This document shows positions 3,812-35,197 of a stretch of DNA of 64,000 nucleotides, piece by piece. Source of the DNA: Escherichia coli (GTDB taxonomy: Bacteria; Pseudomonadota; Gammaproteobacteria; Enterobacterales; Enterobacteriaceae). The stretch's first letter is position 1. Every line of letters begins with the position of its first letter. The notes under the pieces are model-generated. The model was not told the DNA's origin. It ran no database searches and saw nothing but the letters and a program-made list of their open reading frames with translations. A program made the position numbers and the translations under genes. The DNA lies in the NCBI RefSeq assembly GCF_044324875.1, contig NZ_CP172185.1; one strand, given 5' to 3'.

Positions 3812-6607
3812 TTATTTTGGCAATAATACTCCGGTATAGGTATTCACCGGATGAGAAAGATATTGTTTAACGGCAGTGTTAACATTCTCTACCGTCATTT
3901 GTTTCAATAATTGCTCCTGCTCAGTCCATGCTGCAGGATCGTCATATTGAATAAGACTATTTACAATGGTGTTCGCTAATTGTTGAACGCTACGCTGTTG
4001 GATATCGAGGCTGCGCTGAACGTTTTGCTGGTATTCGTTCAGTTCTTGCTCACTGATCCCTTTAGCCAGACGCTTAACCATCACTTCATTCGCTAACGTT
4101 AACAGTTCATCATGTCGTTCCGGTTGACAAGTAAAAGCCAGCAAATGACTGATATCTTTGGCCTGAGGATCAACCGAGAGGCGAGAAGAAACGCTGTATG
4201 CCCCAGAGGCCTGTTCACGAATATTAACGCGTAGATCTTTTGCCAGTGCGACGTTAAAAGCATCGAGCGCCATACGCGTCTCCAGATTAACCGGTGTCCG
4301 GGAATCATAACGCTTCCACTGTGAAACCTGTGCCACAGGTTCATTTTGTTCTTTTACAGTAACCGATGCGTTGTCCGTCGCGCGAGTTAATGGTTTACCT
4401 GCGGCTAATGGCGAATCAGAGTGTTTGATTGATCCTAAGTAAAGCGTAATTAACGGCAGGAGTTTGTCTTCTGCGACATTACCGACAATGACAAACGTGA
4501 TATCCGCTGGAGATGAAAACAACTGGCGATCGGCAGCCAGCGCATCTGCGGCAGTAAACTGTGCAATCTGATTTTCTTGCAGTAATTTCGTGCGGTCATC
4601 AGCATAGCGCGTCTCATACATCTGCTGGGCGAATTTCTCCGCTGGACGCTGGTCGAGCGTTTTCAACGCCTGAATTTGAGCATTTTGTAGCGATGCCCAA
4701 ATATTATCGTTAATCGTGCTGTGGGTGATTCGCTGGTTAATCAACTGGAAACCAGGTTCAGGGTTATTAGTCCGCGCGCTAACAGAGAGCAATGTATTCA
4801 TGCCACTGACTTTACTGCTCAAGGTTACCGAGTTTTCCGCACTCCAGCGTTTCAGGCTGGAAGAGGAGAGTTCACCAACGCCGCTTCCGCTTACTGCTTT
4901 ATTTGCCAGCGCGATAAGTGATTTTTGCTGCGCAGGGAAACTTAAATCGCCTTTATAAGATACGGCAGTAATTTGTAGCTTTTGCTCTTCACCCGCGGAT
5001 TTTGCCAGAATAACCCTGGCACCATTGGAAAGTGTTAATGATGTCAGATTCTCAGCCAGCGTTTCTTTGCTGCTAATTTCCGCCTGTGGGTCAGCGTCTA
5101 CTGTTAACGATAAATTTCTGCCTGGGAAGATGTAAGCCGCCAGCTTTTTGTTGGCGTACTCTTTTTCCAGCGCCAGGATAGCCGCAGGAGACAATGCTTT
5201 TTTGGCAGCAACCTCATTGTTTACCATTTGCTCCCAAAATGCATCCTGGTTCTTTCTTAACTGCTGCCATTTTTCCGCCAGACTTTGCACGGTAATTTGC
5301 TGCCACAGACGTTTCGAAAGTTGATATGTCTCTTCCGGCGACAAGAACGGCGTATTATTTAATGAGCTGGATGCCAGGCGACTGGTCAGCATACGTAAAT
5401 CACGTTCAGCTTGCTGATCAACCGCATTTTTCAGCCAGGTGAGGCGGGTAGATTTGACATCATCGAGTTCTTCAGCAGAAAAACCATGCTGATCAATAGT
5501 TGCCAACTCTGCCATTAATGCATTCGCAGCATCCTGCATATTATCGTCTCGTGCATTTACACGGAAAAACAGCGACTGATAATCGGGTGCAATTTTAACG
5601 CTGCGCGCAGTGCCGCCAGAAATAGTCTTCAACTCGCCCGACTGTATGCGTTCCTGCAGACGCTGATTGAACAGCTGAACCAACATGCTCCATTCAGCTT
5701 GTTCGATAAAGCTTTGCTCATCGCTCACTTGCACCATTGGCAGGCGATAATAGAGTGCGATGCCGTTCACCCGGTTTTCTTTATCATTAATGATATTAAA
5801 GCGCAGGTGGTTTTCGGCTTTTGTCGGCCAGACGCGATTTTCAGCTGCTTTGTTAGCCGGAAGCTTACTTAAATTATCCTTAATCAGCGCCAGCGCTTCT
5901 TTACTGTCGATATCGCCGACCACGATAAAGGTCATATTATTTGGTTGATACCAGCGTTGATAAAATTGGCGCAATTGTGCCGGTGTGACCGTAGCGACAG
6001 TATCCATCACGCCGATAGGTTCACGGTCTAAATTACGGGTATTTGCCAGCAGGAAAGGGCGGCGCGCCTGAGAGGTGCGCCATTTCGCATCCTGATGGGC
6101 ACGCCATTCCTCAGTAATTACGCCGCGTTCAGCGTCTACTTCGAGTTTTTCAAAGCTTGCGGCATTACTCCATTCACTAAAGATTGCCATCACTTGTTGC
6201 AGATTTTGTTTCTGCGTAGTCGGCAAACTCACCTGATACACCGTTTCGTCATAGCTGGTATAGGCATTAACATCGCGACCAAAACGCAGGCCCATTGACT
6301 CAAATGTTTCGATGACTTTATTACCCGGCCATGTTTTTGTGCCGTTAAACATCATATGTTCTACAAAATGAGCCACGCCGCGCTCATTGTCCTCTTCCTG
6401 CAATGAACCGGTATGAATTTGCAGCCATAAATTTACCTGATCCTTTGGTTGAGCATGCGGATAAATCATATATCGCAAGCCATTGTCCAGTTGCCCGGTA
6501 ATTAACTTTTCATCCTGCGGTAAGGCGGCGGCAATCAGTCGCCCGGGGAGCAACAGAGTTGCCACTAACGTCAGTAAGAAACAGAGGTTTCTCATAATTA
6601 TCTCCAT
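3812..6607 (-). CDS. pqqL: periplasmic M16-family zinc metallopeptidase PqqL
   Basis: 936-aa ORF with signal peptide and HFVEHMMF (HxxEH inverzincin) motif; start placed at MEIIMRNL (931 aa) from memory of the K-12 protein; the start is uncertain by a few codons. Confidence 0.9.
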   Translation of the reverse strand: MEIIMRNLCFLLTLVATLLLPGRLIAAALPQDEKLITGQLDNGLRYMIYPHAQPKDQVNLWLQIHTGSLQEEDNERGVAHFVEHMMFNGTKTWPGNKVIETFESMGLRFGRDVNAYTSYDETVYQVSLPTTQKQNLQQVMAIFSEWSNAASFEKLEVDAERGVITEEWRAHQDAKWRTSQARRPFLLANTRNLDREPIGVMDTVATVTPAQLRQFYQRWYQPNNMTFIVVGDIDSKEALALIKDNLSKLPANKAAENRVWPTKAENHLRFNIINDKENRVNGIALYYRLPMVQVSDEQSFIEQAEWSMLVQLFNQRLQERIQSGELKTISGGTARSVKIAPDYQSLFFRVNARDDNMQDAANALMAELATIDQHGFSAEELDDVKSTRLTWLKNAVDQQAERDLRMLTSRLASSSLNNTPFLSPEETYQLSKRLWQQITVQSLAEKWQQLRKNQDAFWEQMVNNEVAAKKALSPAAILALEKEYANKKLAAYIFPGRNLSLTVDADPQAEISSKETLAENLTSLTLSNGARVILAKSAGEEQKLQITAVSYKGDLSFPAQQKSLIALANKAVSGSGVGELSSSSLKRWSAENSVTLSSKVSGMNTLLSVSARTNNPEPGFQLINQRITHSTINDNIWASLQNAQIQALKTLDQRPAEKFAQQMYETRYADDRTKLLQENQIAQFTAADALAADRQLFSSPADITFVIVGNVAEDKLLPLITLYLGSIKHSDSPLAAGKPLTRATDNASVTVKEQNEPVAQVSQWKRYDSRTPVNLETRMALDAFNVALAKDLRVNIREQASGAYSVSSRLSVDPQAKDISHLLAFTCQPERHDELLTLANEVMVKRLAKGISEQELNEYQQNVQRSLDIQQRSVQQLANTIVNSLIQYDDPAAWTEQEQLLKQMTVENVNTAVKQYLSHPVNTYTGVLLPK

Positions 6608-18213: not shown

Positions 18214-19128
18214 TTATTCATAGATAAAAGTGACACCAATGACTGACTGGACGGTTCCGGCTGCAACCTTGTTTCCTGTTTGTCCATAGGTTGCGCTTAA
18301 ACCCAGAGGTACTTTGCTTTTATTTACTGTCCCCAGGGAGACGTTTTCTCCCGTAGCCAGTATTTTTCCATTACGCATCAGAGAGACACCCACTCCCGAT
18401 GCTTTTGTTGCATCTGGTGCTGTGTTAGCAAACACTTGTCTGGCACTGTCAGTGGTAGCACCCGAAAGATAAAATGAGAGCTTTTGTTCACTTGAGCAAT
18501 ATACGCCAAGGGGTATTTCTGCGCTTCCAGGAAAGTCCGGGAGATTCACGTTGACATTACGACTATCAACGGTGCAGCCGCCTGTTGGCATAACAACACT
18601 GTTATTTGAAATAATATTCCACGTAAAATTACGCGGATTTCCACTTCCTAACGTGGCAATTTTATACATATGAATACGGGCAATAACTTCCCCGGCTTTT
18701 ATGACAACTCCACCGGCCGCACCGACTGGGGTAATATAGAGTTTTAACGGTAATGGCATCGGTGTCTTATCACCAATATCTAATACATTAGTATTTGTCG
18801 TCAACGGGAAGGGGTAGGTCACATTATTCCAGTACAGCGATCCTTTATATGACTGTAGAGAGCCTGCGAAAGCTGAGCCTTGTACCAGGTTTATATGATC
18901 AGTGTCGTACCAGCCGCCGTAATCATTCCAGCAACTTATATGCTGAGACAAGTCTACAACCAGATTCTGGCCCGGTTGTATTACAGGGTCGAGATTAACA
19001 TAAACAGAGGTTGTACCTGCTCCAATACTTGACCCGCCATCGACATTACAACTGAAGGCAAAAACTTTGCCTGCCATTAATAGAAGATAAATACCGAACA
19101 GAAGCTTCATACTTATTGTTTTACCCAT
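18214..19128 (-). CDS. ydeQ: fimbrial tip adhesin-like protein (FimH-like)
   Basis: 304-aa ORF with signal peptide and C-terminal pilin domain; last gene of the chaperone-usher operon. Confidence 0.85.
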
Positions 19129-25009: not shown

Positions 25010-25264
25010 TTAAAGCTGACCGACAGACTTTCTTAACCTGGTAATATCTCTCTTAGGTGACTCTCCAAACATCCGCGAATATTCCCGACTGAAATGGGAT
25101 AAGCTTTCGTAACCGACAGCATAGGCTGCAGTGGTGACATCGTAATGTTCATTCAGCATCAGTCGCCTGGCTTCATTGAGGCGTAGCCATTTCTGATACC
25201 GGAGTGGACTCATTCCCGCAAGCTGTCTGAATTGTTGATGGAAAGAGGGGGTGTTCATTTGCAC
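25010..25264 (-). pseudogene. yneL: AraC-family regulator remnant (C-terminal HTH only, yneL-like)
   Basis: 84-aa ORF containing only the second AraC HTH region (…GMSPLRYQKWLRLNEARRLM…); no N-terminal domain is encoded upstream in frame. Confidence 0.7.
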
Positions 25265-25544
25265 GCGGTTTGCCAGCCTGACTCTTCAACGCAGGGAAGA
25301 TGCGGCAAACGGCAAACCTGCATACCAGCCAGCCTATATCAGGTATGCACAGGCCAATCATGAAAGAGGAGAGGCTTTATGTTCTGGAACCCTGAAGTAA
25401 TAACGACGACCGTAAAATCGCTTCGCATCACTCAAATTCCATTTAACTATTCTGGGTTTGAGGGATATACATAATTGACTTCAGCACCAGAAACAGCATA
25501 ACAAACTGTTTTAAATGGATATTAATCAAATGACGATTCAAACT

Positions 25545-25579
25545 CACAGTTATGAACTCAGTTTTGGTTCATAACTGTG
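25545..25579. repeat. perfect 13-bp inverted repeat with 9-bp spacer
   Basis: cacagttatgaac-tcagttttg-gttcataactgtg; a related palindrome gttcatgaac lies at 25619-25628. Located between the AraC remnant and the accessory cluster. Confidence 0.6.
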
Positions 25580-25678
25580 TTAAACGCTGTCCATAAATCA
25601 CTCGATGTCACGTCTGTTGGTTCATGAACTGATCGTTCTAATTTTGTGATGTGCGTCAGGTTTTAGTGTTCAGTAATG

Positions 25679-26482
25679 TTACCTTTTACTCGATGATCGA
25701 TTGTTTAGCACCTCTCCCACAACCGGAGCAGCGGTAAATGCGTTTGGCCAGCCAGCATAGAAGGCGGCCTGGGTAACGATCTCACCAGCTTCCTCAACAG
25801 AAAGTCCATTATCCATTGCTCTATTGAGGTGATAGCCAATCTGCGCGCTCTGTCCGGATGCGATTAAGGCGCTGACCGTAATCAGGCTTCTGTCGCGGGG
25901 TTTCAGCGCGGGTCTTTGCCAGAGATCCAGGAAGAGTGGATCAGCAGTGAATTTAACCAGGCCTGGAGATATTGGGCCAACATTTTTTTCCACTGTCTCT
26001 GAACGCTGCTTTTCTGCTTCCTGATTGAGAGGAAGCAGGCCCGGAGAAGCTTCAGGAAGTGCATCTGCCGTGACGCCACGAGTTTCAAATACTGCTTTGA
26101 TCACGCTGACGGCTGACATTGCATTTGGCCAACCTGAGTAGAACGCCAGATGGGTAATGATTTCTGATAATTCCGCTGGCGTCACGCCGCTATCGAGAGC
26201 GACGTCAATATAGTGCTTAAGCTCGGCAGGCTGGTTGCGGGCAATCAGCATGGCGACGGTCACCACACTACGATCCCTCGGTGAGAGGGCGTCGCGTGTC
26301 CACAGATCTTCAGTAATAGCTTCGCGACCAAAGCGCGCGAGAGCCGGTGAGACGGAACGAATATCAGCTTCCGAAATCGCTGACGGTTCTATTTTCATCA
26401 TAGCTTTACCTCTTGTTTCCTCAGCATTGGCAAAATCAGAAATAACAAGCGACATAGCCGCTGCTGCAAGTACGCTTTTCAT
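25679..26482 (-). CDS. secreted tandem carboxymuconolactone-decarboxylase (CMD/AhpD-like) domain protein
   Basis: 267-aa ORF; signal peptide MKSVLAAAAMSLVISDFANA; two internally repeated ~100-aa CMD-like domains (DLWTRDALSPRDRS… and DLWQRPALKPRDRS…). Confidence 0.8.
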   Translation of the reverse strand: MKSVLAAAAMSLVISDFANAEETRGKAMMKIEPSAISEADIRSVSPALARFGREAITEDLWTRDALSPRDRSVVTVAMLIARNQPAELKHYIDVALDSGVTPAELSEIITHLAFYSGWPNAMSAVSVIKAVFETRGVTADALPEASPGLLPLNQEAEKQRSETVEKNVGPISPGLVKFTADPLFLDLWQRPALKPRDRSLITVSALIASGQSAQIGYHLNRAMDNGLSVEEAGEIVTQAAFYAGWPNAFTAAPVVGEVLNNRSSSKR

Positions 26483-26497
26483 GTTAATCCTTACTGG

Positions 26498-27223
26498 TCA
26501 ACGTTGCGGCTCCTGTTTGATTCCGCCTTTGTTACGAAGAAATACCGGTTTTACCGGGATTGCGTCCTTCCTGGCGCTCATATGCGCCGTTTGCCTGAGG
26601 TAATCCAGGATGTGCAGCGTTTGTCGGTGCAGTTGATAATCCTCCTCACTGGCGTAAATCTCATAGAAATACCAGCGTTTTGGAGTCTCTGAATCTGTAC
26701 CGGCATACATGGCTAACACGCCTTTCTCTACTTTGAGCGACTCGACCATTTCAGGAAGGACGATGTTTCTAAATTCGCTCTGAAATTCAGGCTTTACTTC
26801 GACGATCACCAGATTATTGATAGTTCGTTCATTCGGTATGATGTGTTTGTCGCCCAGAAACTGTGGCTCCAGGGTAATTTTCTTCTTCCTGTCAATAATG
26901 TCAGGTGCACGAGCAGCGAATGCTTTGTATGGGGCGGCATTGAGATGTTTGCGATAAGCACGCTCATTTTCATAGAGTTCGAACATGAATGCCTGACCTG
27001 AATTGTCGCTGCGTTGCAGGGCATACATCGCCAGTGTACCTGCTTCATGATCAACCGAAGCGGAAATCGTCTGTCTGGCCACGTCTGCAAAGTCGTTGTC
27101 CCGATCGGGTCTGATGCCGAGCTCGAAGATATTCATCTCCGACTTATTCGGCGCGTCCGGTTTTGTTGCAAAGACAGGGCTGCTTATTAGCATGCAAATT
27201 AAAAGCATAAAAGTCTTTTTCAC
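26498..27223 (-). CDS. secreted tandem ABM (antibiotic-biosynthesis-monooxygenase / quinol-monooxygenase-like) domain protein
   Basis: 241-aa ORF; signal peptide MKKTFMLLICMLISSPVFA; two ABM-like halves (LAMYALQ…FELYENERAYRKH and LAMYAGT…YEIYASEEDYQLH). Start is GTG at 27223 or ATG at 27208. Confidence 0.75.
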   Translation of the reverse strand: MKKTFMLLICMLISSPVFATKPDAPNKSEMNIFELGIRPDRDNDFADVARQTISASVDHEAGTLAMYALQRSDNSGQAFMFELYENERAYRKHLNAAPYKAFAARAPDIIDRKKKITLEPQFLGDKHIIPNERTINNLVIVEVKPEFQSEFRNIVLPEMVESLKVEKGVLAMYAGTDSETPKRWYFYEIYASEEDYQLHRQTLHILDYLRQTAHMSARKDAIPVKPVFLRNKGGIKQEPQR

Positions 27224-27338
27224 GATGATCTTTTTACTGACGTTACTGTTTAAGACGTTCGATCAACTGGTGCTGGTAAGAACGTAACCGACCGCTACTG
27301 GCGCTCTCAAAGACGAGAGGAGGAAAAGTGAATAAGGG

Positions 27339-30317
<2,979 letters not shown>

Positions 30318-30319
30318 TG

Positions 30320-30892
30320 TTATTCTCCCTCTGGATTATTCACGACGGAATTGAGCAGTTCGACAAGCCTTGAAGCGTGTTCCCGGGCAAGCGTTTTTTG
30401 CTGCGCGATTTTGTCGGCATCCCGGTCGGCATAGCTGATACCGCAGGTATAAACCGGCGTCAGCAGCTCAAGATTGCACAGCCTTGCCGTGGTTTCGAAC
30501 GGAATAAGATACTCTTCAATGGTATGGCCAAAGAAACTGTCGACGGTATAGAGCTCCTCTGGCGCTCCCGTTGTAAAGGAGAGGATCAGCTTTTTACCGC
30601 CCAGTTTCGCCGTTGAGCCATGCGCGAAGCCGTGAACAAAGACCTCGTCCAGCCATTTTTTCATTAATCCTGGCAGCCCATACCAGGAAAAAGGGAACTG
30701 CCAGACAATCACATCGGCCCTGAGCAGGCTTTCCTGCTCCGCCGCGATGTTGAATTTGCCATCCGGATAGAGCCTGTCCAGACGACGAATCTCAACATCA
30801 GGAAGGGCGGTCTCCACTTCATCAAGAATAGTGGCATTGGCGACGGAATGGGTAAGCTCAGGATGACCTGAAATAACAAGGATATTTTTCAT
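30320..30892 (-). CDS. flavodoxin-like NAD(P)H:quinone oxidoreductase (KefG/KefF/MdaB-like)
   Basis: 190-aa ORF MKNILVISGHPE…; resembles KefG-type quinone reductases; stop is 2 bp upstream of the disrupted AKR start (same operon). Confidence 0.75.
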   Translation of the reverse strand: MKNILVISGHPELTHSVANATILDEVETALPDVEIRRLDRLYPDGKFNIAAEQESLLRADVIVWQFPFSWYGLPGLMKKWLDEVFVHGFAHGSTAKLGGKKLILSFTTGAPEELYTVDSFFGHTIEEYLIPFETTARLCNLELLTPVYTCGISYADRDADKIAQQKTLAREHASRLVELLNSVVNNPEGE

Positions 30893-31041
30893 TTCAATCA
30901 GTTAAACATCTTTGGTGAATATTAAATCCAGTATAGAGTGACAACATTATTTTTTTAGAGCAGTAAAGACTCATTCACTTTTAGACAAAAACTAATAATG
31001 GTCAACTGTTCTCATTGTACCGGTCATCACGAACCCGTGAA

Positions 31042-31718
31042 CTACGCCGTGATGCCCAGTAAACGTTCTGCATTGCGAAATGCGATGGCCTCTTTTTCAG
31101 CCTTGTTGACGGGCAGACTGTCTATAAAGGTTTTTACACCGTCCAGGGTCTGATAGGGATAATCGACGGAGAACAGGATCCTTTCAGCACCCATTAACGC
31201 GTAGATAAACTGGAAGTGCGGCAGTGTTAGCATATGGCGGGGTAACGTAAACGTGTTCCTGGAAGGTTCTCGTTAGCGTGCGTGACAGACCCGTTGCAGC
31301 CAGTGGTAGGCTGTCATCAAGACGCTGGAGCCAGAAGGGTAACATCTCCCCCCAGTGGCCACTGATTACCTGCAGGTTGGGATATTTATCAAATGCGCCC
31401 GATAACATCAGCCGCAACAAATGGATCCCCGCTTCGTGATGCCAGCCCCAGGCAAACATAGAAAGCCTGGCGTTGACCTCTGCGCTGAAGCCCGTGAAGT
31501 AGGCCTGCTGTACGCTTTTAAGCGGTAACCCGGGATGAAGATAGAGTGGCACATTCAGTTTATTAAAGCGGGAAAGCAGGGAGTCGGTCAGGATTATGAC
31601 CATCAGCGACGGTTTTCCCCCAGTCGCCAAGGAAAGGTGCCTGCTCAAGCGCAACAGGCATACACGCTCGCCCTAACTCGCTGTCGAGATAATGTTCTTC
31701 GAGGCAAATGATTTTCAT
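31042..31718 (-). pseudogene. amidohydrolase-2 family (ACMSD / gamma-resorcylate decarboxylase-like) gene remnant
   Basis: Three consecutive frames carry pieces of one protein: MKIICLEEHYLD… (from 31718), …LYLHPGLP…GWHHEAGIHLLRLMLSGAFDKYPNLQVISGHWGEMLPFWLQR…, …ERILFSVDYPYQ…; at least two frameshifts and an apparently shortened N-terminal region. Confidence 0.7.
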
Positions 31719-31820
31719 ATTCTCACCATTCATACAAAGCAGTAAAAGTGATACAGATTAGAATCACCCGGAACAGCCCGTTCGTGTGTGTCATTCATGA
31801 CAGTCTGTTCCGGACGGGCT

Positions 31821-32768
31821 TTACACCATCGGTTTTTCCCAGGCGCCTCGTGTATCCACTCTGGTCTCTGCGGCGAGTTGTTCCAGCAGGATGATTTCCT
31901 CATCGCGTAACTGGATGTCTGAAGCGCAGGCGGCGTCCAGAACGTGATGGACTTTAGTCGCACCAACGAGGGGAAGGGTACCTTTCGCAATAGCCCATGC
32001 GATGGCTATCTGTGCCACGCTGGCATTCCTTTCGGCTCCCATTTTTTTCATGGCGGCGGTTAGTCTTTCTATCTGCGGCAGTACTGCGTTATAACTTTCG
32101 GCCCGGCCACTCCCGGCAGGCATGGGATGATTTGAATCATAACGACCACTGAGCGCGCCTTGCTCCAGGACCATGTAAGCAAAGAACGTGATGTTATTTT
32201 GTCGGCAATAATCAAGGATCCCGGCCTCTTCAGAAGCGCGATAGAGCAGGCTGTAGTGATTTTGTACTGCACTGAGGGAATAACCGGAAGCGTTAAGGAT
32301 TTCATTGGCGCGTCTGATTTGTGCCAGATTGTGGTTGGAAACACCTACGCGTTTTACCTTACCGCTTTGTAAAAGTGGGATCAATCCTGGCGTCCATTTT
32401 TCGACGTCGAGGGGATTATGGATCCAGTAGATATCAATCGCGTCCACGCCCAAGCGCCCAAGGCTGGCCTCAAGCATATCGCTGACAGGCTGCGCAGACT
32501 GCTTGTCCGCAATCTGCGGCGTGAATTTGGTGGATAAAATTATGTTCTCGCGAGGAAACTGACGGACTAATGCTCCCAGCGCAGTCTCGGAACTCCCCAT
32601 ACCATATACTGCTGCGGTATCCCAGAGATTGAGGCCCTTACTCATGGCCGCAGTGAACACTTCTGCCATCTGAGTATCAGAAAGATGATTACCAAAGACG
32701 GTGTCGCCGCCGGCAAAGCCTGTGCCCCAGGACCATGTACCTAGTGCGACTGGAGGTAGTGTTTTCAT
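31821..32768 (-). CDS. aldo-keto reductase (intact)
   Basis: 315-aa ORF MKTLPPVALGTWSWG… with AKR family features throughout. Confidence 0.85.
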   Translation of the reverse strand: MKTLPPVALGTWSWGTGFAGGDTVFGNHLSDTQMAEVFTAAMSKGLNLWDTAAVYGMGSSETALGALVRQFPRENIILSTKFTPQIADKQSAQPVSDMLEASLGRLGVDAIDIYWIHNPLDVEKWTPGLIPLLQSGKVKRVGVSNHNLAQIRRANEILNASGYSLSAVQNHYSLLYRASEEAGILDYCRQNNITFFAYMVLEQGALSGRYDSNHPMPAGSGRAESYNAVLPQIERLTAAMKKMGAERNASVAQIAIAWAIAKGTLPLVGATKVHHVLDAACASDIQLRDEEIILLEQLAAETRVDTRGAWEKPMV

Positions 32769-32829
32769 ATTCAGCTCCTGAAAAAAGGCCGGATCGTGGC
32801 TGACTTAAACCGGCCAAGTAAGGAATTAA

Positions 32830-33531
32830 TTAAGCTGTCCGGCGGAGTGCATTTAACAGCGCCACACCAACCCCATGTGCTGAAGCGGGATTCTGCCCCG
32901 TGATAAGGCGATCGTCGGTAACCACGTTTTCAGACCAGTTTGGAGCTTCATGATAAAGCGCACCATGCTCGCGAAGTGCGGTTTCAAGCAGGAAGGGAAC
33001 CACATCTGTTGTGTGAACTTCTTCCTCTTCCTTGTTGGTAAAGGCCGCCACATTTTTCCCTTTTATCAGGTATTCGCCGCTACTGAGTTTTGCGTCAACC
33101 AATGCCGCAGGCCCGTGGCAGACGGCTGAGACAATCCCATCACTTTCATACACTTCGCGGATAATACGCTGGGCATCCTGATTATCACGGAAATCCCACA
33201 TGGTCCCATGACCACCTGCAAAGAAAACTGCGCTGTAATCGGCACCTTTCAGCTCGGATAACGCAGGTGTTGTTGCCAGGCGCTGCTGAAAATCGGTTTC
33301 GTTCCAGTACCAGGCGTTAACAGGGTCGCTGAGGTTAAATCCATCCACCGGTGGCTGCCCCCCGCGAATACTGGCTATTGTTGTTTTTATTCCGGCATCT
33401 TCCAGTACTTTCAGCGGATGAGTCAGCTCGGCCAGGAAAAAACCGGTTGGTACACCGGATGCGCCTTTAATCGGATGGCTGGAAACGACACATAGCACTG
33501 GTTTATATGCAGGTTTCATATCGGTCCTCAC
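32830..33531 (-). CDS. DJ-1/PfpI family protein (class I glutamine amidotransferase-like; glyoxalase/deglycase candidate)
   Basis: 233-aa ORF with the nucleophile elbow …SAVCHGP… typical of DJ-1/PfpI proteins. Confidence 0.8.
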   Translation of the reverse strand: MRTDMKPAYKPVLCVVSSHPIKGASGVPTGFFLAELTHPLKVLEDAGIKTTIASIRGGQPPVDGFNLSDPVNAWYWNETDFQQRLATTPALSELKGADYSAVFFAGGHGTMWDFRDNQDAQRIIREVYESDGIVSAVCHGPAALVDAKLSSGEYLIKGKNVAAFTNKEEEEVHTTDVVPFLLETALREHGALYHEAPNWSENVVTDDRLITGQNPASAHGVGVALLNALRRTA

Positions 33532-33839
33532 TCTTTATTTTTAAATTCATCGGCGAAGAGATTTTCCCAGTTAATAAAGGAGCCAAGCGGTATACACTCG
33601 AAGCTTAGTAAGCCTGCTTTTGCCAACGGGAATTCGGCCATAACGTTCATCGCTTCATCGACAGAGTCACATTCAAGAAAAATAGCGACGCCAGGTCTGT
33701 CCTGACGGAAGTAGATGTCGCGGATGAAGCCTGATTTATACAATCCCCAGGCGTGCAGAGCTTCAGCGTTGAGGTGCGGAGCATATTTCTCCAGCGATGC
33801 TACAGGGGCAGGGATATCCAGACATAAAATTCGCATCAT
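33528..33839 (-). CDS. small Dabb-fold protein (muconolactone-isomerase-like / YciI-like)
   Basis: 103-aa ORF; stop overlaps the DJ-1 start by 4 bp (translational coupling); AGGAG RBS upstream; family call is by pattern and is approximate. Confidence 0.6.
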   Translation of the reverse strand: MMRILCLDIPAPVASLEKYAPHLNAEALHAWGLYKSGFIRDIYFRQDRPGVAIFLECDSVDEAMNVMAEFPLAKAGLLSFECIPLGSFINWENLFADEFKNKE

Positions 33840-33975
33840 AGTCTCCTGAACTCAGGTCGTAGTAGAAAGAGACTAAAGTATAAGAGGCGTATTTCAGGAA
33901 GATTAGAGGGTCATTGACTTAAGCATTTTTAGACTGTACTTAATAATCAGGCGAGAATTGCTTTAGGAAAACATT

Positions 33976-34875
33976 ATGAATAACGCTCTTTATAACCAGA
34001 TTCGCATCTTCCAGAGCATTGCGCGGGAGGGCAATATTTCGGCAGCCGCAAGGAAACTGGAAATTACGCCTCCCTCCGTCAGCAATGCACTAAAGCTGCT
34101 GGAAGAGTATATCGGTCATCCGCTTTTTGTGCGTACGACCCGCCGTATAGAGCTGACGGAAACCGGTCAATTATTGCTGGAACAGACCGCTGCGGCGGTG
34201 GAGTCGCTGGAAAACTCACTTGAAAGCATTCGCGACCAGCATCAGGAGCCCTCAGGGATGGTGCGAATTACGCTCTCGCGTTTTGCCTACCTGTTAATTC
34301 TTAAGCCTGCGATGGCAGAATTCTGTCAGCAATATCCGGGTATACAGTTAGAAATTTCGGTCTACGACGGTACCGTGAATATCATCAAAGAGCGTTTTGA
34401 TCTGGGGATCCGTTTTGGCGATATTCTTGAGGGAGGGGTGGTGGCCCGACCGTTAATGAAACCGTTTCGTGAAGGATTATATGCATCCTCAGCGTATCTC
34501 TCCCGACATGGAACGCCTGAAGTGCCGGCAGATCTCTGTCATCACCAGCTGATTGGTTACCGTTTTATCACCAACAACCGCATCCTTCCGCTGCTCCTGA
34601 ACGATCGCGGTGAGCAGTTGACCGTTGAGATGCCGGGGCAGTTAATCAGCAACGATATTGACGTTATGGCAGACGGGATCCGTAACGGGCTGGGAATTGG
34701 GCGCTTGTTTGAGCCTGTCTGGCAGTTACAGCCGGACAGGGAGCGCTTTATTCCGGTGATGGAGAGCTACTGGAAAACCTACCCGCCAGTGTATCTCTAT
34801 TACCCCAAAAACGCGGGTAAAACGAAAAGAGTGAAGGCCCTGATTGATTTTCTGATATCCACTACGGGGCGATAA
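33976..34875 (+). CDS. LysR-family transcriptional regulator
   Basis: 299-aa ORF with N-terminal LysR HTH (…IFQSIAREGNISAAARKLEITPPSVSNALKLLEEYIGHPLFVR…); divergent from the minus-strand enzyme cluster across a 136-bp intergenic region. Confidence 0.88.
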   Translation: MNNALYNQIRIFQSIAREGNISAAARKLEITPPSVSNALKLLEEYIGHPLFVRTTRRIELTETGQLLLEQTAAAVESLENSLESIRDQHQEPSGMVRITLSRFAYLLILKPAMAEFCQQYPGIQLEISVYDGTVNIIKERFDLGIRFGDILEGGVVARPLMKPFREGLYASSAYLSRHGTPEVPADLCHHQLIGYRFITNNRILPLLLNDRGEQLTVEMPGQLISNDIDVMADGIRNGLGIGRLFEPVWQLQPDRERFIPVMESYWKTYPPVYLYYPKNAGKTKRVKALIDFLISTTGR

Positions 34876-35166
34876 AGACGATAACGCCTCGTTCGGTATG
34901 GAGATGCATCGAATGGCATTGTGAGTTTTTTTTCACAGATGGGCGTAATCGTCAGTGGATTTTACATACAAGGATAGCGCCCACATACTGACATCATTAA
35001 TTAACGTTGGGTGAGGTTTACCGGGGGGAGGGGAAAGCGAACCAGGAGATGGAGGTGGCCAATCTGGTACGAACCGCCGCGTAGCTTGCACGGCAAAAGC
35101 TGCTGACTGATTCATCAGTTAAGCTACTGAAAGAGCGGAACACATGAACTTAAGAACAAACCCACC

Positions 35167-35197
<31 letters not shown>

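Follow-up and report, generated by a model that had tools for sequence, protein, structure and literature searches.

We examined a 64,000-nucleotide stretch of an Escherichia coli genome (NCBI RefSeq assembly GCF_044324875.1, contig NZ_CP172185.1; hereafter the window) that carries a cluster of short palindromes at the left edge of an accessory gene cluster. Genes in the window follow the order ydeP, the ydeQRS-usher-chaperone-fimA fimbrial operon, yneL (an AraC-type pseudogene), the accessory cluster, hipA-hipB, an autotransporter and lsr. We found that the accessory cluster is a deletion derivative of a mobile element inserted at dif, the XerC/XerD dimer-resolution site, that this copy has lost its recombinase genes, and that the palindromes are part of the element's conserved distal end. 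Of the three options raised in an earlier note on this DNA, an operator, a recombination site and the relic of a mobile-element end, the last is the right one. The palindromes are probably sub-terminal docking sites for recombination or accessory proteins of the element, present in the window as relics.

The inverted repeat consists of two 13-nt arms that are 100% complementary and separated by a 9-nt spacer. Its left arm, D2 (25545-25557, minus strand), reads CACAGTTATGAAC on the plus strand and GTTCATAACTGTG on the minus strand, and its right arm, D3 (25567-25579), reads GTTCATAACTGTG on the plus strand. The self-complementary 10-mer GTTCATGAAC (25620-25629) starts 40 nt past D3 and forms the core of a third site, D4 (TTGGTTCATGAACTG, 25617-25631). 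Both palindromes are as first described, including their placement in non-coding DNA between the yneL pseudogene and the stop codon, at 25679, of a gene for carboxymuconolactone decarboxylase (CMD). The core they were said to share, GTTCAT(A/G)AAC, needs revision: the arms read GTTCATAAC (9 nt) instead of GTTCATAAAC, and GTTCATRAAC matches 25620-25629 alone. What the sites do have in common is TTGGTTCAT and AACTG (the third site has an additional G); the extended motif is of the form TGGTTCAT(G)AACTG.

A chance origin of the palindromes is unlikely because the 13-mer of the arms occurs at a single locus within the window, because the RNA hairpin of D2 and D3 (-18.8 kcal/mol on the plus strand and -21.4 kcal/mol on the minus strand) has a z-score of about -5, matched by 0 of 200 shuffles, and because no other stretch of the 64 kb holds four GTTCAT/ATGAAC hexamers in 234 nt (background, 0.69 per kb). 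Five of the 13 stem pairs are G-C; D4 has no fold of its own (z = +0.3). A scan of 25200-25900 returned no terminator-like and no promoter-like site, and no T-run adjoins the stem on either strand, which agrees with the initial remark that the lack of a U-tract speaks against a simple terminator. The palindrome region had no match in Rfam at E <= 1, and none was found in the phage genomes searched. To our knowledge, none of the operator consensus sequences of LexA, CRP, ArgR, ArcA and Cra fits in spacing or sequence, as judged by informal comparison.

An island at the outer edge of dif

The inserted DNA spans 25448-35168 and begins right after the last base of the XerD arm of dif. The dif site itself (AGTGCGCATAATGTATATTATGTTAAAT, 35169-35196, minus strand) is intact and abuts the element; it has A instead of G at the first, outer XerC-arm base, a variant also present in two metagenome loci (L135 and L169). 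At the other side, the match between the window and strains without the cluster ends at 25447. In one such strain, 2014C-3075, the empty site in the hipA-yneL interval reads dif GGTGCGCATAATGTATATTATGTTAAAT followed by GTAATTTGAGTG, and the 28-mer GGTGCGCATAATGTATATTATGTTAAAT is the experimentally defined E. coli dif (PMC3025954). The occupied site in the window reads dif|ATGGTGGGTTTG ... CCCAGAATA|GTTAAAT|GGAATTTGAGTG. A junction between conserved backbone and accessory DNA thus exists close to the palindromes, as had been supposed, but it lies at 25447/25448, 98 bp to their left.

When occupied and empty sites are compared, GTTAAAT (25441-25447, minus strand; ATTTAAC on the plus strand) at this distal junction, the attR side, proves to be a direct repeat of the 7 bp that end the XerD arm, and the same repeat accompanies insertions on plasmids. 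These 7 bp are perfect; when the repeat is extended to 10 nt, 7/10 positions match in type-1 elements and 9/10 in type-2 elements. Inside the repeat, the distal terminal inverted repeat TATTCTGGGTTTG (25448-25460, plus strand) pairs with the proximal ATGGTGGGTTTG (35157-35168), which closes a remnant of about 66-70 nt of the recombinase-proximal end (35100-35168, minus strand). A Chimaeribacter copy (L131) has the termini TATTCTGGGTTTGA (proximal) and TATTCTGGGCTTAA (distal). The distal terminus opens a conserved AT-rich end of 234 bp (25448-25681) with 35.5% G+C, compared with 47.7% for the window.

The 6-bp central region of dif is where XerC and XerD act, exchanging strands at its borders. 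The distal junction, ATATCCCTCAAACCCAGAATAGTTAAAT, matches the XerC arm at 4/11 positions and the XerD arm at 7/11, and it carries AATAGTTAAAT where a product of Xer recombination would show the chromosomal TTATGTTAAAT. Because the chromosomal XerD arm is not regenerated at this junction and no XerC arm is present there, exchange took place within or after GTTAAAT. Across seven distinct Xer-type targets (E. coli dif, four enterobacterial plasmid sites, an Aliivibrio plasmid site and an Acinetobacter pdif-type site), the XerC arm and the central region vary, TTATGTTAAAT is invariant and the element is joined after its last T. The element, its two ends and its target are in this respect directly observed.

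An island at dif could also be moved by the host, with the palindromes as accessory sequences for XerC/XerD at the adjacent site and the island as an integrative mobile element that makes use of Xer recombination (IMEX), as proposed for EludIMEX/EcloIMEX in Enterobacter; islands at dif in that genus are described as Xer-dependent. The motif TTCATAA, moreover, contains CATAA, the inner pentamer of both Xer-binding arms (GCGCATAA; the reverse complement of TTATGTT). We nevertheless regard Xer-driven movement as very unlikely. The joint follows the outermost base of the XerD arm and does not fall in the 6-bp central region, the distal junction matches either arm poorly, intact relatives encode recombinases of their own and the palindromes lie about 9.6 kb from dif when the element is integrated. 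As for the CATAA overlap, judged from sequence, it could be coincidence or could mean that proteins of the element share DNA-recognition features with Xer recombinases.

Intact relatives and the missing recombinase module

Strain no107 carries a 33-kb element at the same site and with the same ends as the island in the window, and directly beside dif, at 2503556-2509640 of NZ_CP075374.1, it has four genes, encoding a site-specific integrase (473 aa), an integrase (555 aa) and hypothetical proteins of 845 aa and 167 aa. The same element occurs on plasmid pPEC389_1, and a further copy on an Enterobacter hormaechei plasmid, each at a plasmid Xer-type site and with the same module. Six intact relatives (L008, L009, L133, L132, L173 and L174) have four overlapping or adjacent genes next to an Xer site, with products of about 470, 555, 790-845 and 145-167 aa.

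The first two proteins show the catalytic pattern of tyrosine recombinases (R..HxxR..W..Y in the first; R, K, RH and Y plus a Cys cluster in the second), and searches of Pfam, NCBIfam and PDB sequences returned weak recombinase matches for both; the same searches gave no match for the third and fourth proteins. In the third protein (845 aa; L008, 10608-13145), four homologues have invariant GFRxxE, HxPRH, MGR and HY, and hhalign places these residues opposite box II and the tyrosine of the second protein in a weak alignment (E = 0.08). On the basis of these residues, the third protein may be catalytically competent, unlike the published GinC, with R252, H509, R512 and Y544 as candidate active-site residues. 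The fourth protein was modeled as all-helical (predicted local distance difference test score, pLDDT, of 78), with three short N-terminal helices and a 40-residue helix, and had no significant structural neighbor.

In the window, the recombinase operon is gone and the cargo directly follows the proximal remnant. This is the usual state: the distal end was present at >=80% coverage in 526 E. coli genomes, compared with a near-complete module of this lineage in 61 of 5426, and most E. coli copies are therefore deletion derivatives. Deletion end-points differ by lineage, leaving 49, about 70, 88 or 95 nt of the proximal end.

We located the distal end in E. coli (553 of 5426 genomes), on plasmids (51, from nine genera) and, in a scan with its terminal 23 nt, in 39 metagenome contigs. 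The median was one place per genome and the maximum two, which rules out an interspersed repeat of the REP, ERIC or MITE kind, and the random scatter of the motif over the genome that would have spoken against a functional site is absent. The end is known from E. coli, Klebsiella, Enterobacter, Chimaeribacter and metagenomes, with 25 distinct versions in about seven lineages (metagenome loci and others), and in all lineages that carry it the palindromes are equally far from the junction. A second pattern applied to genome contigs, TTATGAACN{7,11}GTTCATAA, was rejected as unspecific: it has 16 AT-rich specified bases, and the matches listed were scattered over unrelated phyla and taken as chance, with inspection confined to one locus, L019, on the chromosome of Enterobacter cloacae DSM 26481. 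There (about 4380-4460), GTTAAAT separates a type-1 distal end, which retains a CMD remnant, from the proximal end, TTAGTCCGTCGTTCATTTAGTTCATAACC, of the distantly related type-2 family, an arrangement that looks like a tandem array of elements at one Xer site. On the Klebsiella pneumoniae plasmid pKpN01-CTX (L130), we noted two or three dif-like sites (10836, 18428 and 46417), ending in TTATGTTAAAT or, at 18428, in TTATGTTAAAA; a type-1 element that is truncated lies about 900 bp away from one of them.

The 234 bp that reach from 25448 to the CMD stop codon are found again, at about 75% identity, beside at least five unrelated cargoes, and homology between lineages with different cargo ends at that stop codon. 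The adjoining cargo comprises the CMD/LysR genes in the window, a restriction enzyme with Hachiman and other systems (L005 and L133), AVAST (L131), unknown genes (L007) and a HEPN/Toprim island (L004). In L005 and L133, the adjoining gene is transcribed away from the end, and the segment is still kept. The commonest type, found in 250 genomes and represented by strain H9Ecoli (L004, 2900-6111), has the distal end plus only 96 bp of the CMD gene, followed by genes for a HEPN/Toprim-associated protein, a hypothetical protein and a tyrosine recombinase.

These observations bear on the operator proposed at the outset. In that reading, a host factor or a cargo regulator would control a promoter that faces outward or inward where the element ends. 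Operators typically have dyad symmetry, and the cargo includes LysR and helix-turn-helix regulators. Yet the segment is conserved next to cargoes that share no regulator and in either orientation of the neighboring gene, and 25200-25900 holds no promoter-like site. Copies of the motif are found at fixed distances in the element's other end as well, and these distances from both termini, constant from E. coli to Acinetobacter, tie it to the element core and not to a cargo gene. An operator is accordingly not favored, and we consider it quite unlikely.

Conserved repeats inside both ends

Measured from the distal terminus, D2 lies at +98 to +110, D3 at +120 to +132 and D4 at +170 to +184. A degenerate fourth copy, D1 (25467-25474, plus strand; ATACATAA, or ATTCATAA in the Chimaeribacter copy), stands at +20 and mirrors a site at +20 of the proximal end. 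That proximal site, P1 (TAAGTTCATGT, 35142-35152), is the sole proximal copy left in the window.

Mean pairwise identity among six lineage representatives was 0.92 for D1 (+20 to +27, a stretch outside the 23-nt pattern with which the ends were fetched), 0.91 for D2, 0.95 for D3 and 0.84 for D4, compared with 0.71 for the spacer of the inverted repeat and 0.60-0.68 for the stretches between sites. The three motif cores reach 0.95 against 0.64 for the rest of the end, a difference rarely reproduced by random blocks of equal sizes (P = 5e-5). Between D4 and the cargo (25632-25678), the sequence TTCTAATTTTGTGATG..GTCAGGTTTTAGTGTTCAGTAAT has an identity of 0.68 with short conserved blocks.

Conservation concerns the sequence of the arms and not their pairing, since no base-pair change in the 13-bp stem is compensated. 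Among seven distinct stem versions, 8/15 pairs are invariant and none shows a double-sided change. Four pairs are broken, each in a single lineage (GTACATAAC in L004, CTGCG in L131 and the outer left arm in L005), and a fifth change, seen in L146 (GTTCATGAC), leaves a U-G wobble in place of a U-A pair. With GTACATAAC in its right arm, the L004 type has a broken palindrome in 250 E. coli genomes. A structured RNA family is not supported, given the absence of both an Rfam match and covariation among the 15 pairs.

The hairpin might still work as RNA, as a terminator without a U-tract, a 3' stabilizer or an insulator that halts transcription of the cargo operon before it enters the chromosome. 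It would be well placed for this, following the CMD stop codon by 100-134 nt on the transcribed strand, and its fold on that minus strand is stable (z = -5.1). Such a role is unlikely in view of the uncompensated stem substitutions and the lack of a U-tract, a terminator-like match or an Rfam match noted above, and the segment is kept where the neighboring gene points away from the end. D4 is equally conserved but has no fold, the type-2 family has just a 10-bp palindrome at the equivalent place and the motif forms direct repeats at the other end of the element.

A hairpin could act in DNA as well, on a single-stranded intermediate, as a priming site for the complementary strand or an origin-of-transfer-like site for hitch-hiking on conjugative plasmids. 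The 13-bp stem is perfect, the 9-nt spacer length is kept in most lineages, many copies reside on conjugative plasmids and a single-stranded circle has been proposed for integrative elements with strand-biased circularization (SEs) (PMC10214605). We hold this to be improbable, however: the stem shows no covariation and has uncompensated mismatches in four lineages, no relaxase and no recognizable nick-site context was seen, and what stays constant across families is the motif and its distance from the terminus, not the potential to form a hairpin.

Proximal ends of the E. coli and Aliivibrio elements contain [GC]TTCAT[AG] at +20, +97 and +129 to +131, all in one orientation (shuffle P of about 1e-4 per end). 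The Aliivibrio relative has a third protein 65% identical to that of the E. coli element, and the sequence around the motifs has diverged beyond recognition; the distal end of the Aliivibrio element was not located in L132, the Aliivibrio wodanis plasmid pAWOD_1. Three more proximal ends (type 2 on a Salmonella IncHI2 plasmid, type 2 on an E. coli IncF plasmid and an element on an Acinetobacter pittii plasmid) abut TTATGTTAAAT and have the motif at exactly +20 with a second copy near +110, and their third proteins are only 29-34% identical. In all, five element families, with protein identities as low as about 30%, have the motif at +20 of the end next to the module. In the type-2 distal end, we found GTTCAC at +21 and the 10-bp palindrome CTTCATGAAC at +97. 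Conservation of the motif and its fixed positions are, like the ends, matters of direct observation.

Based on this pattern, we favor sub-terminal docking sites as the explanation of the palindromes. The motif is distinct from the terminal repeat, lies at a fixed distance from both termini and is arranged differently in the two ends, and it is conserved in sequence, independent of cargo and common to families that share only the module and the target. A recombination site, as initially suggested, was nearly right: these would be recombination sequences of the element itself, with the crossover elsewhere, at the GTTAAAT repeat, which is present at 25441-25447 and again at the edge of dif.

Several points weigh against this explanation. 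That a protein binds the sites, and which one, we infer; the motif is short; and a perfect 13-bp stem with a stable predicted hairpin is more than two adjacent protein sites need. The distal ends were collected with a terminal pattern from type-1 elements and so sample one family. A dimeric accessory factor that binds DNA would agree with the model of the small protein, but structural matches lend such a fold no support. Assignment to the genomic islands that encode three integrases (GInts) discussed below is based on layout, with the Pseudomonas Gin proteins compared by description only.

The mechanism we propose starts from an element of the GInt plan, with a far end that is short and AT-rich, variable cargo and, at the opposite end, a four-gene recombination module encoding two clear tyrosine recombinases, a large related protein as the third and a small helical one. 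This lineage inserts just outside the XerD arm of dif or of plasmid Xer sites, exchanging strands within GTTAAAT and leaving dif intact. The repeats would act as arm-type sites that shape a nucleoprotein complex joining the core junction to the XerD arm, with the inverted pair D2/D3 (centers 22 bp apart) and the 10-bp palindrome D4 each taking up one dimer. The predicted junction of the excised circle is CAAACCCAGAATA-GTTAAAT-ATGGTGGGTTTG, and excision of a window-type island would leave the empty site dif|GTAATTTG. Because the recombination module is deleted, the sites in the window are relics, and they would function only if a related intact element supplied the proteins in trans.

Relation to known elements, significance and cargo

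GInts, also known as the Tn6571 family (Bardaji et al. 2017, PMC5385486; Idola et al., PMC10214605), are already known, as is their presence in E. coli defense hotspots. The elements described here resemble them: one end holds a four-gene module, for three integrase-like proteins and a small helical one, the far end is short and AT-rich, the cargo varies, and insertion is site-specific with short imperfect direct repeats (10-17 nt in GInts, 7 perfect bp here). They differ in their target, which is the outer XerD-arm edge of dif and plasmid Xer sites compared with an ABC-transporter gene, ssb and a ribonucleotide reductase gene for GInts in the literature searched, and in their far end, which has four positioned motif copies where that of GInts is 'poorly conserved' and lacks defined repeats. 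The third protein keeps candidate catalytic residues, whereas GinC has a recombinase-like fold without the catalytic RHRY (PMC10214605), and the copy in the window has no module. SEs and Tn554 likewise combine two tyrosine recombinases with auxiliary proteins and target specificity, and have terminal imperfect inverted repeats of 13-19 bp and a 6-bp flanking 'footprint' (PMC10214605). In SEs, however, the fold-only protein lies between the two recombinases, unlike the order of recombinase, recombinase, large and small protein found here and in GInts, and no dif targeting has been reported for them.

With IMEX (CTX-phi, TLC-phi, the gonococcal island and EludIMEX-1/EcloIMEX), the elements share a location at dif, the regeneration of a functional dif and possible tandem arrays, as in L019. 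IMEX lack a recombinase of their own and carry a dif-like attachment site that XerC/XerD recombine in the central region. In the present elements, the joint falls outside the XerD arm, no dif-like site forms the distal junction and intact members have recombinase genes, which the copy in the window lost by deletion. IMEX are set apart by description, the Enterobacter elements being compared through published accounts and not through their sequences.

In overall architecture, the motif copies may be likened to the arm sites of lambda attP, the ArgR/PepA accessory sequences of cer and the sub-terminal transposase sites of Tn7 and Mu. As in those arm-type and accessory-site systems, a short motif that differs from the core or terminal repeat is present in several copies, set at fixed distances within each end; they are arranged here as direct repeats in one end and as an inverted pair plus a palindrome in the other.

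An anonymous accessory cluster thereby becomes a defined mobile element with mapped ends, a mapped target and testable putative protein-binding sites. The literature searched describes neither a GInt-type element that targets dif nor defined sub-terminal repeats in such elements. Little is known of GInt recombination past the need for four genes, and the TTCAT sites (+20, about +97 to +130 and the distal palindromes) would be its first concrete DNA substrates. Among the cargo that this family carries between chromosomes and the large conjugative plasmids of clinical Enterobacterales are anti-phage systems (Hachiman, AVAST, restriction enzymes and a Gabija-like pair) and a cluster for fluoride resistance.

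That the hipA-ydeT interval contains dif explains its variability as a hotspot in E. coli. Hochhauser et al. list it as defense hotspot #20, with no integration feature given in the portion of that work available to us; their coordinates for strain ETEC H10407 do not match RefSeq coordinates and provided no link to published GInts. RefSeq protein identifiers from the element were not found in the accessible part of the supplements of PMC10214605. Insertion that spares dif and is always against the XerD arm raises the question of whether host XerD has a part in target choice.

It is possible, though we put this forward tentatively, that a large clade of recombinase-trio elements, spread over Enterobacterales, Vibrionaceae and Acinetobacter and not described in the literature searched, is marked by TTCAT repeats and the invariant joint. 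For these elements, the XerD arm of dif and plasmid Xer sites would be a universal safe harbor, perhaps recognized with XerD bound, where they pile up in tandem and leave behind recombinase-less islands, like that in the window, which could be moved in trans through their sub-terminal sites. If so, these elements would explain hotspot #20 and possibly the 'Xer-dependent' carbapenemase islands of Enterobacter too, and Xer catalysis would not be the cause.

Cargo beside the module also varies. In the Aliivibrio element (L132, 3105-6877), it comprises an AAA ATPase/TOPRIM protein and a UvrD-type helicase, a Gabija-like pair. The type-2 element on the Salmonella IncHI2 plasmid pN1566-2 (L177, 22073-39000) and in L173 carries a fluoride-resistance-like cluster (crcB, enolase, P-type ATPase and ClC channel) and a MutS-like gene pair, and it occupies the same plasmid Xer site as the type-1 element on pPEC389_1. 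In the window, the cargo (25679-35099) consists of a LysR regulator gene (33976-34875, plus strand) and a divergent oxidoreductase operon, which encodes an NAD(P)H oxidoreductase, an aldo/keto reductase, a quinol monooxygenase and CMD and ends with the CMD gene (25679-26482, minus strand), so that the palindromes are 3' of this operon. An IS21-family element with istA and istB open reading frames (28259-30060) lies inside the operon and splits the aldo/keto reductase gene (flank at 27339-28202), which is whole (1020 nt) in strain CFSAN018748 (L003).

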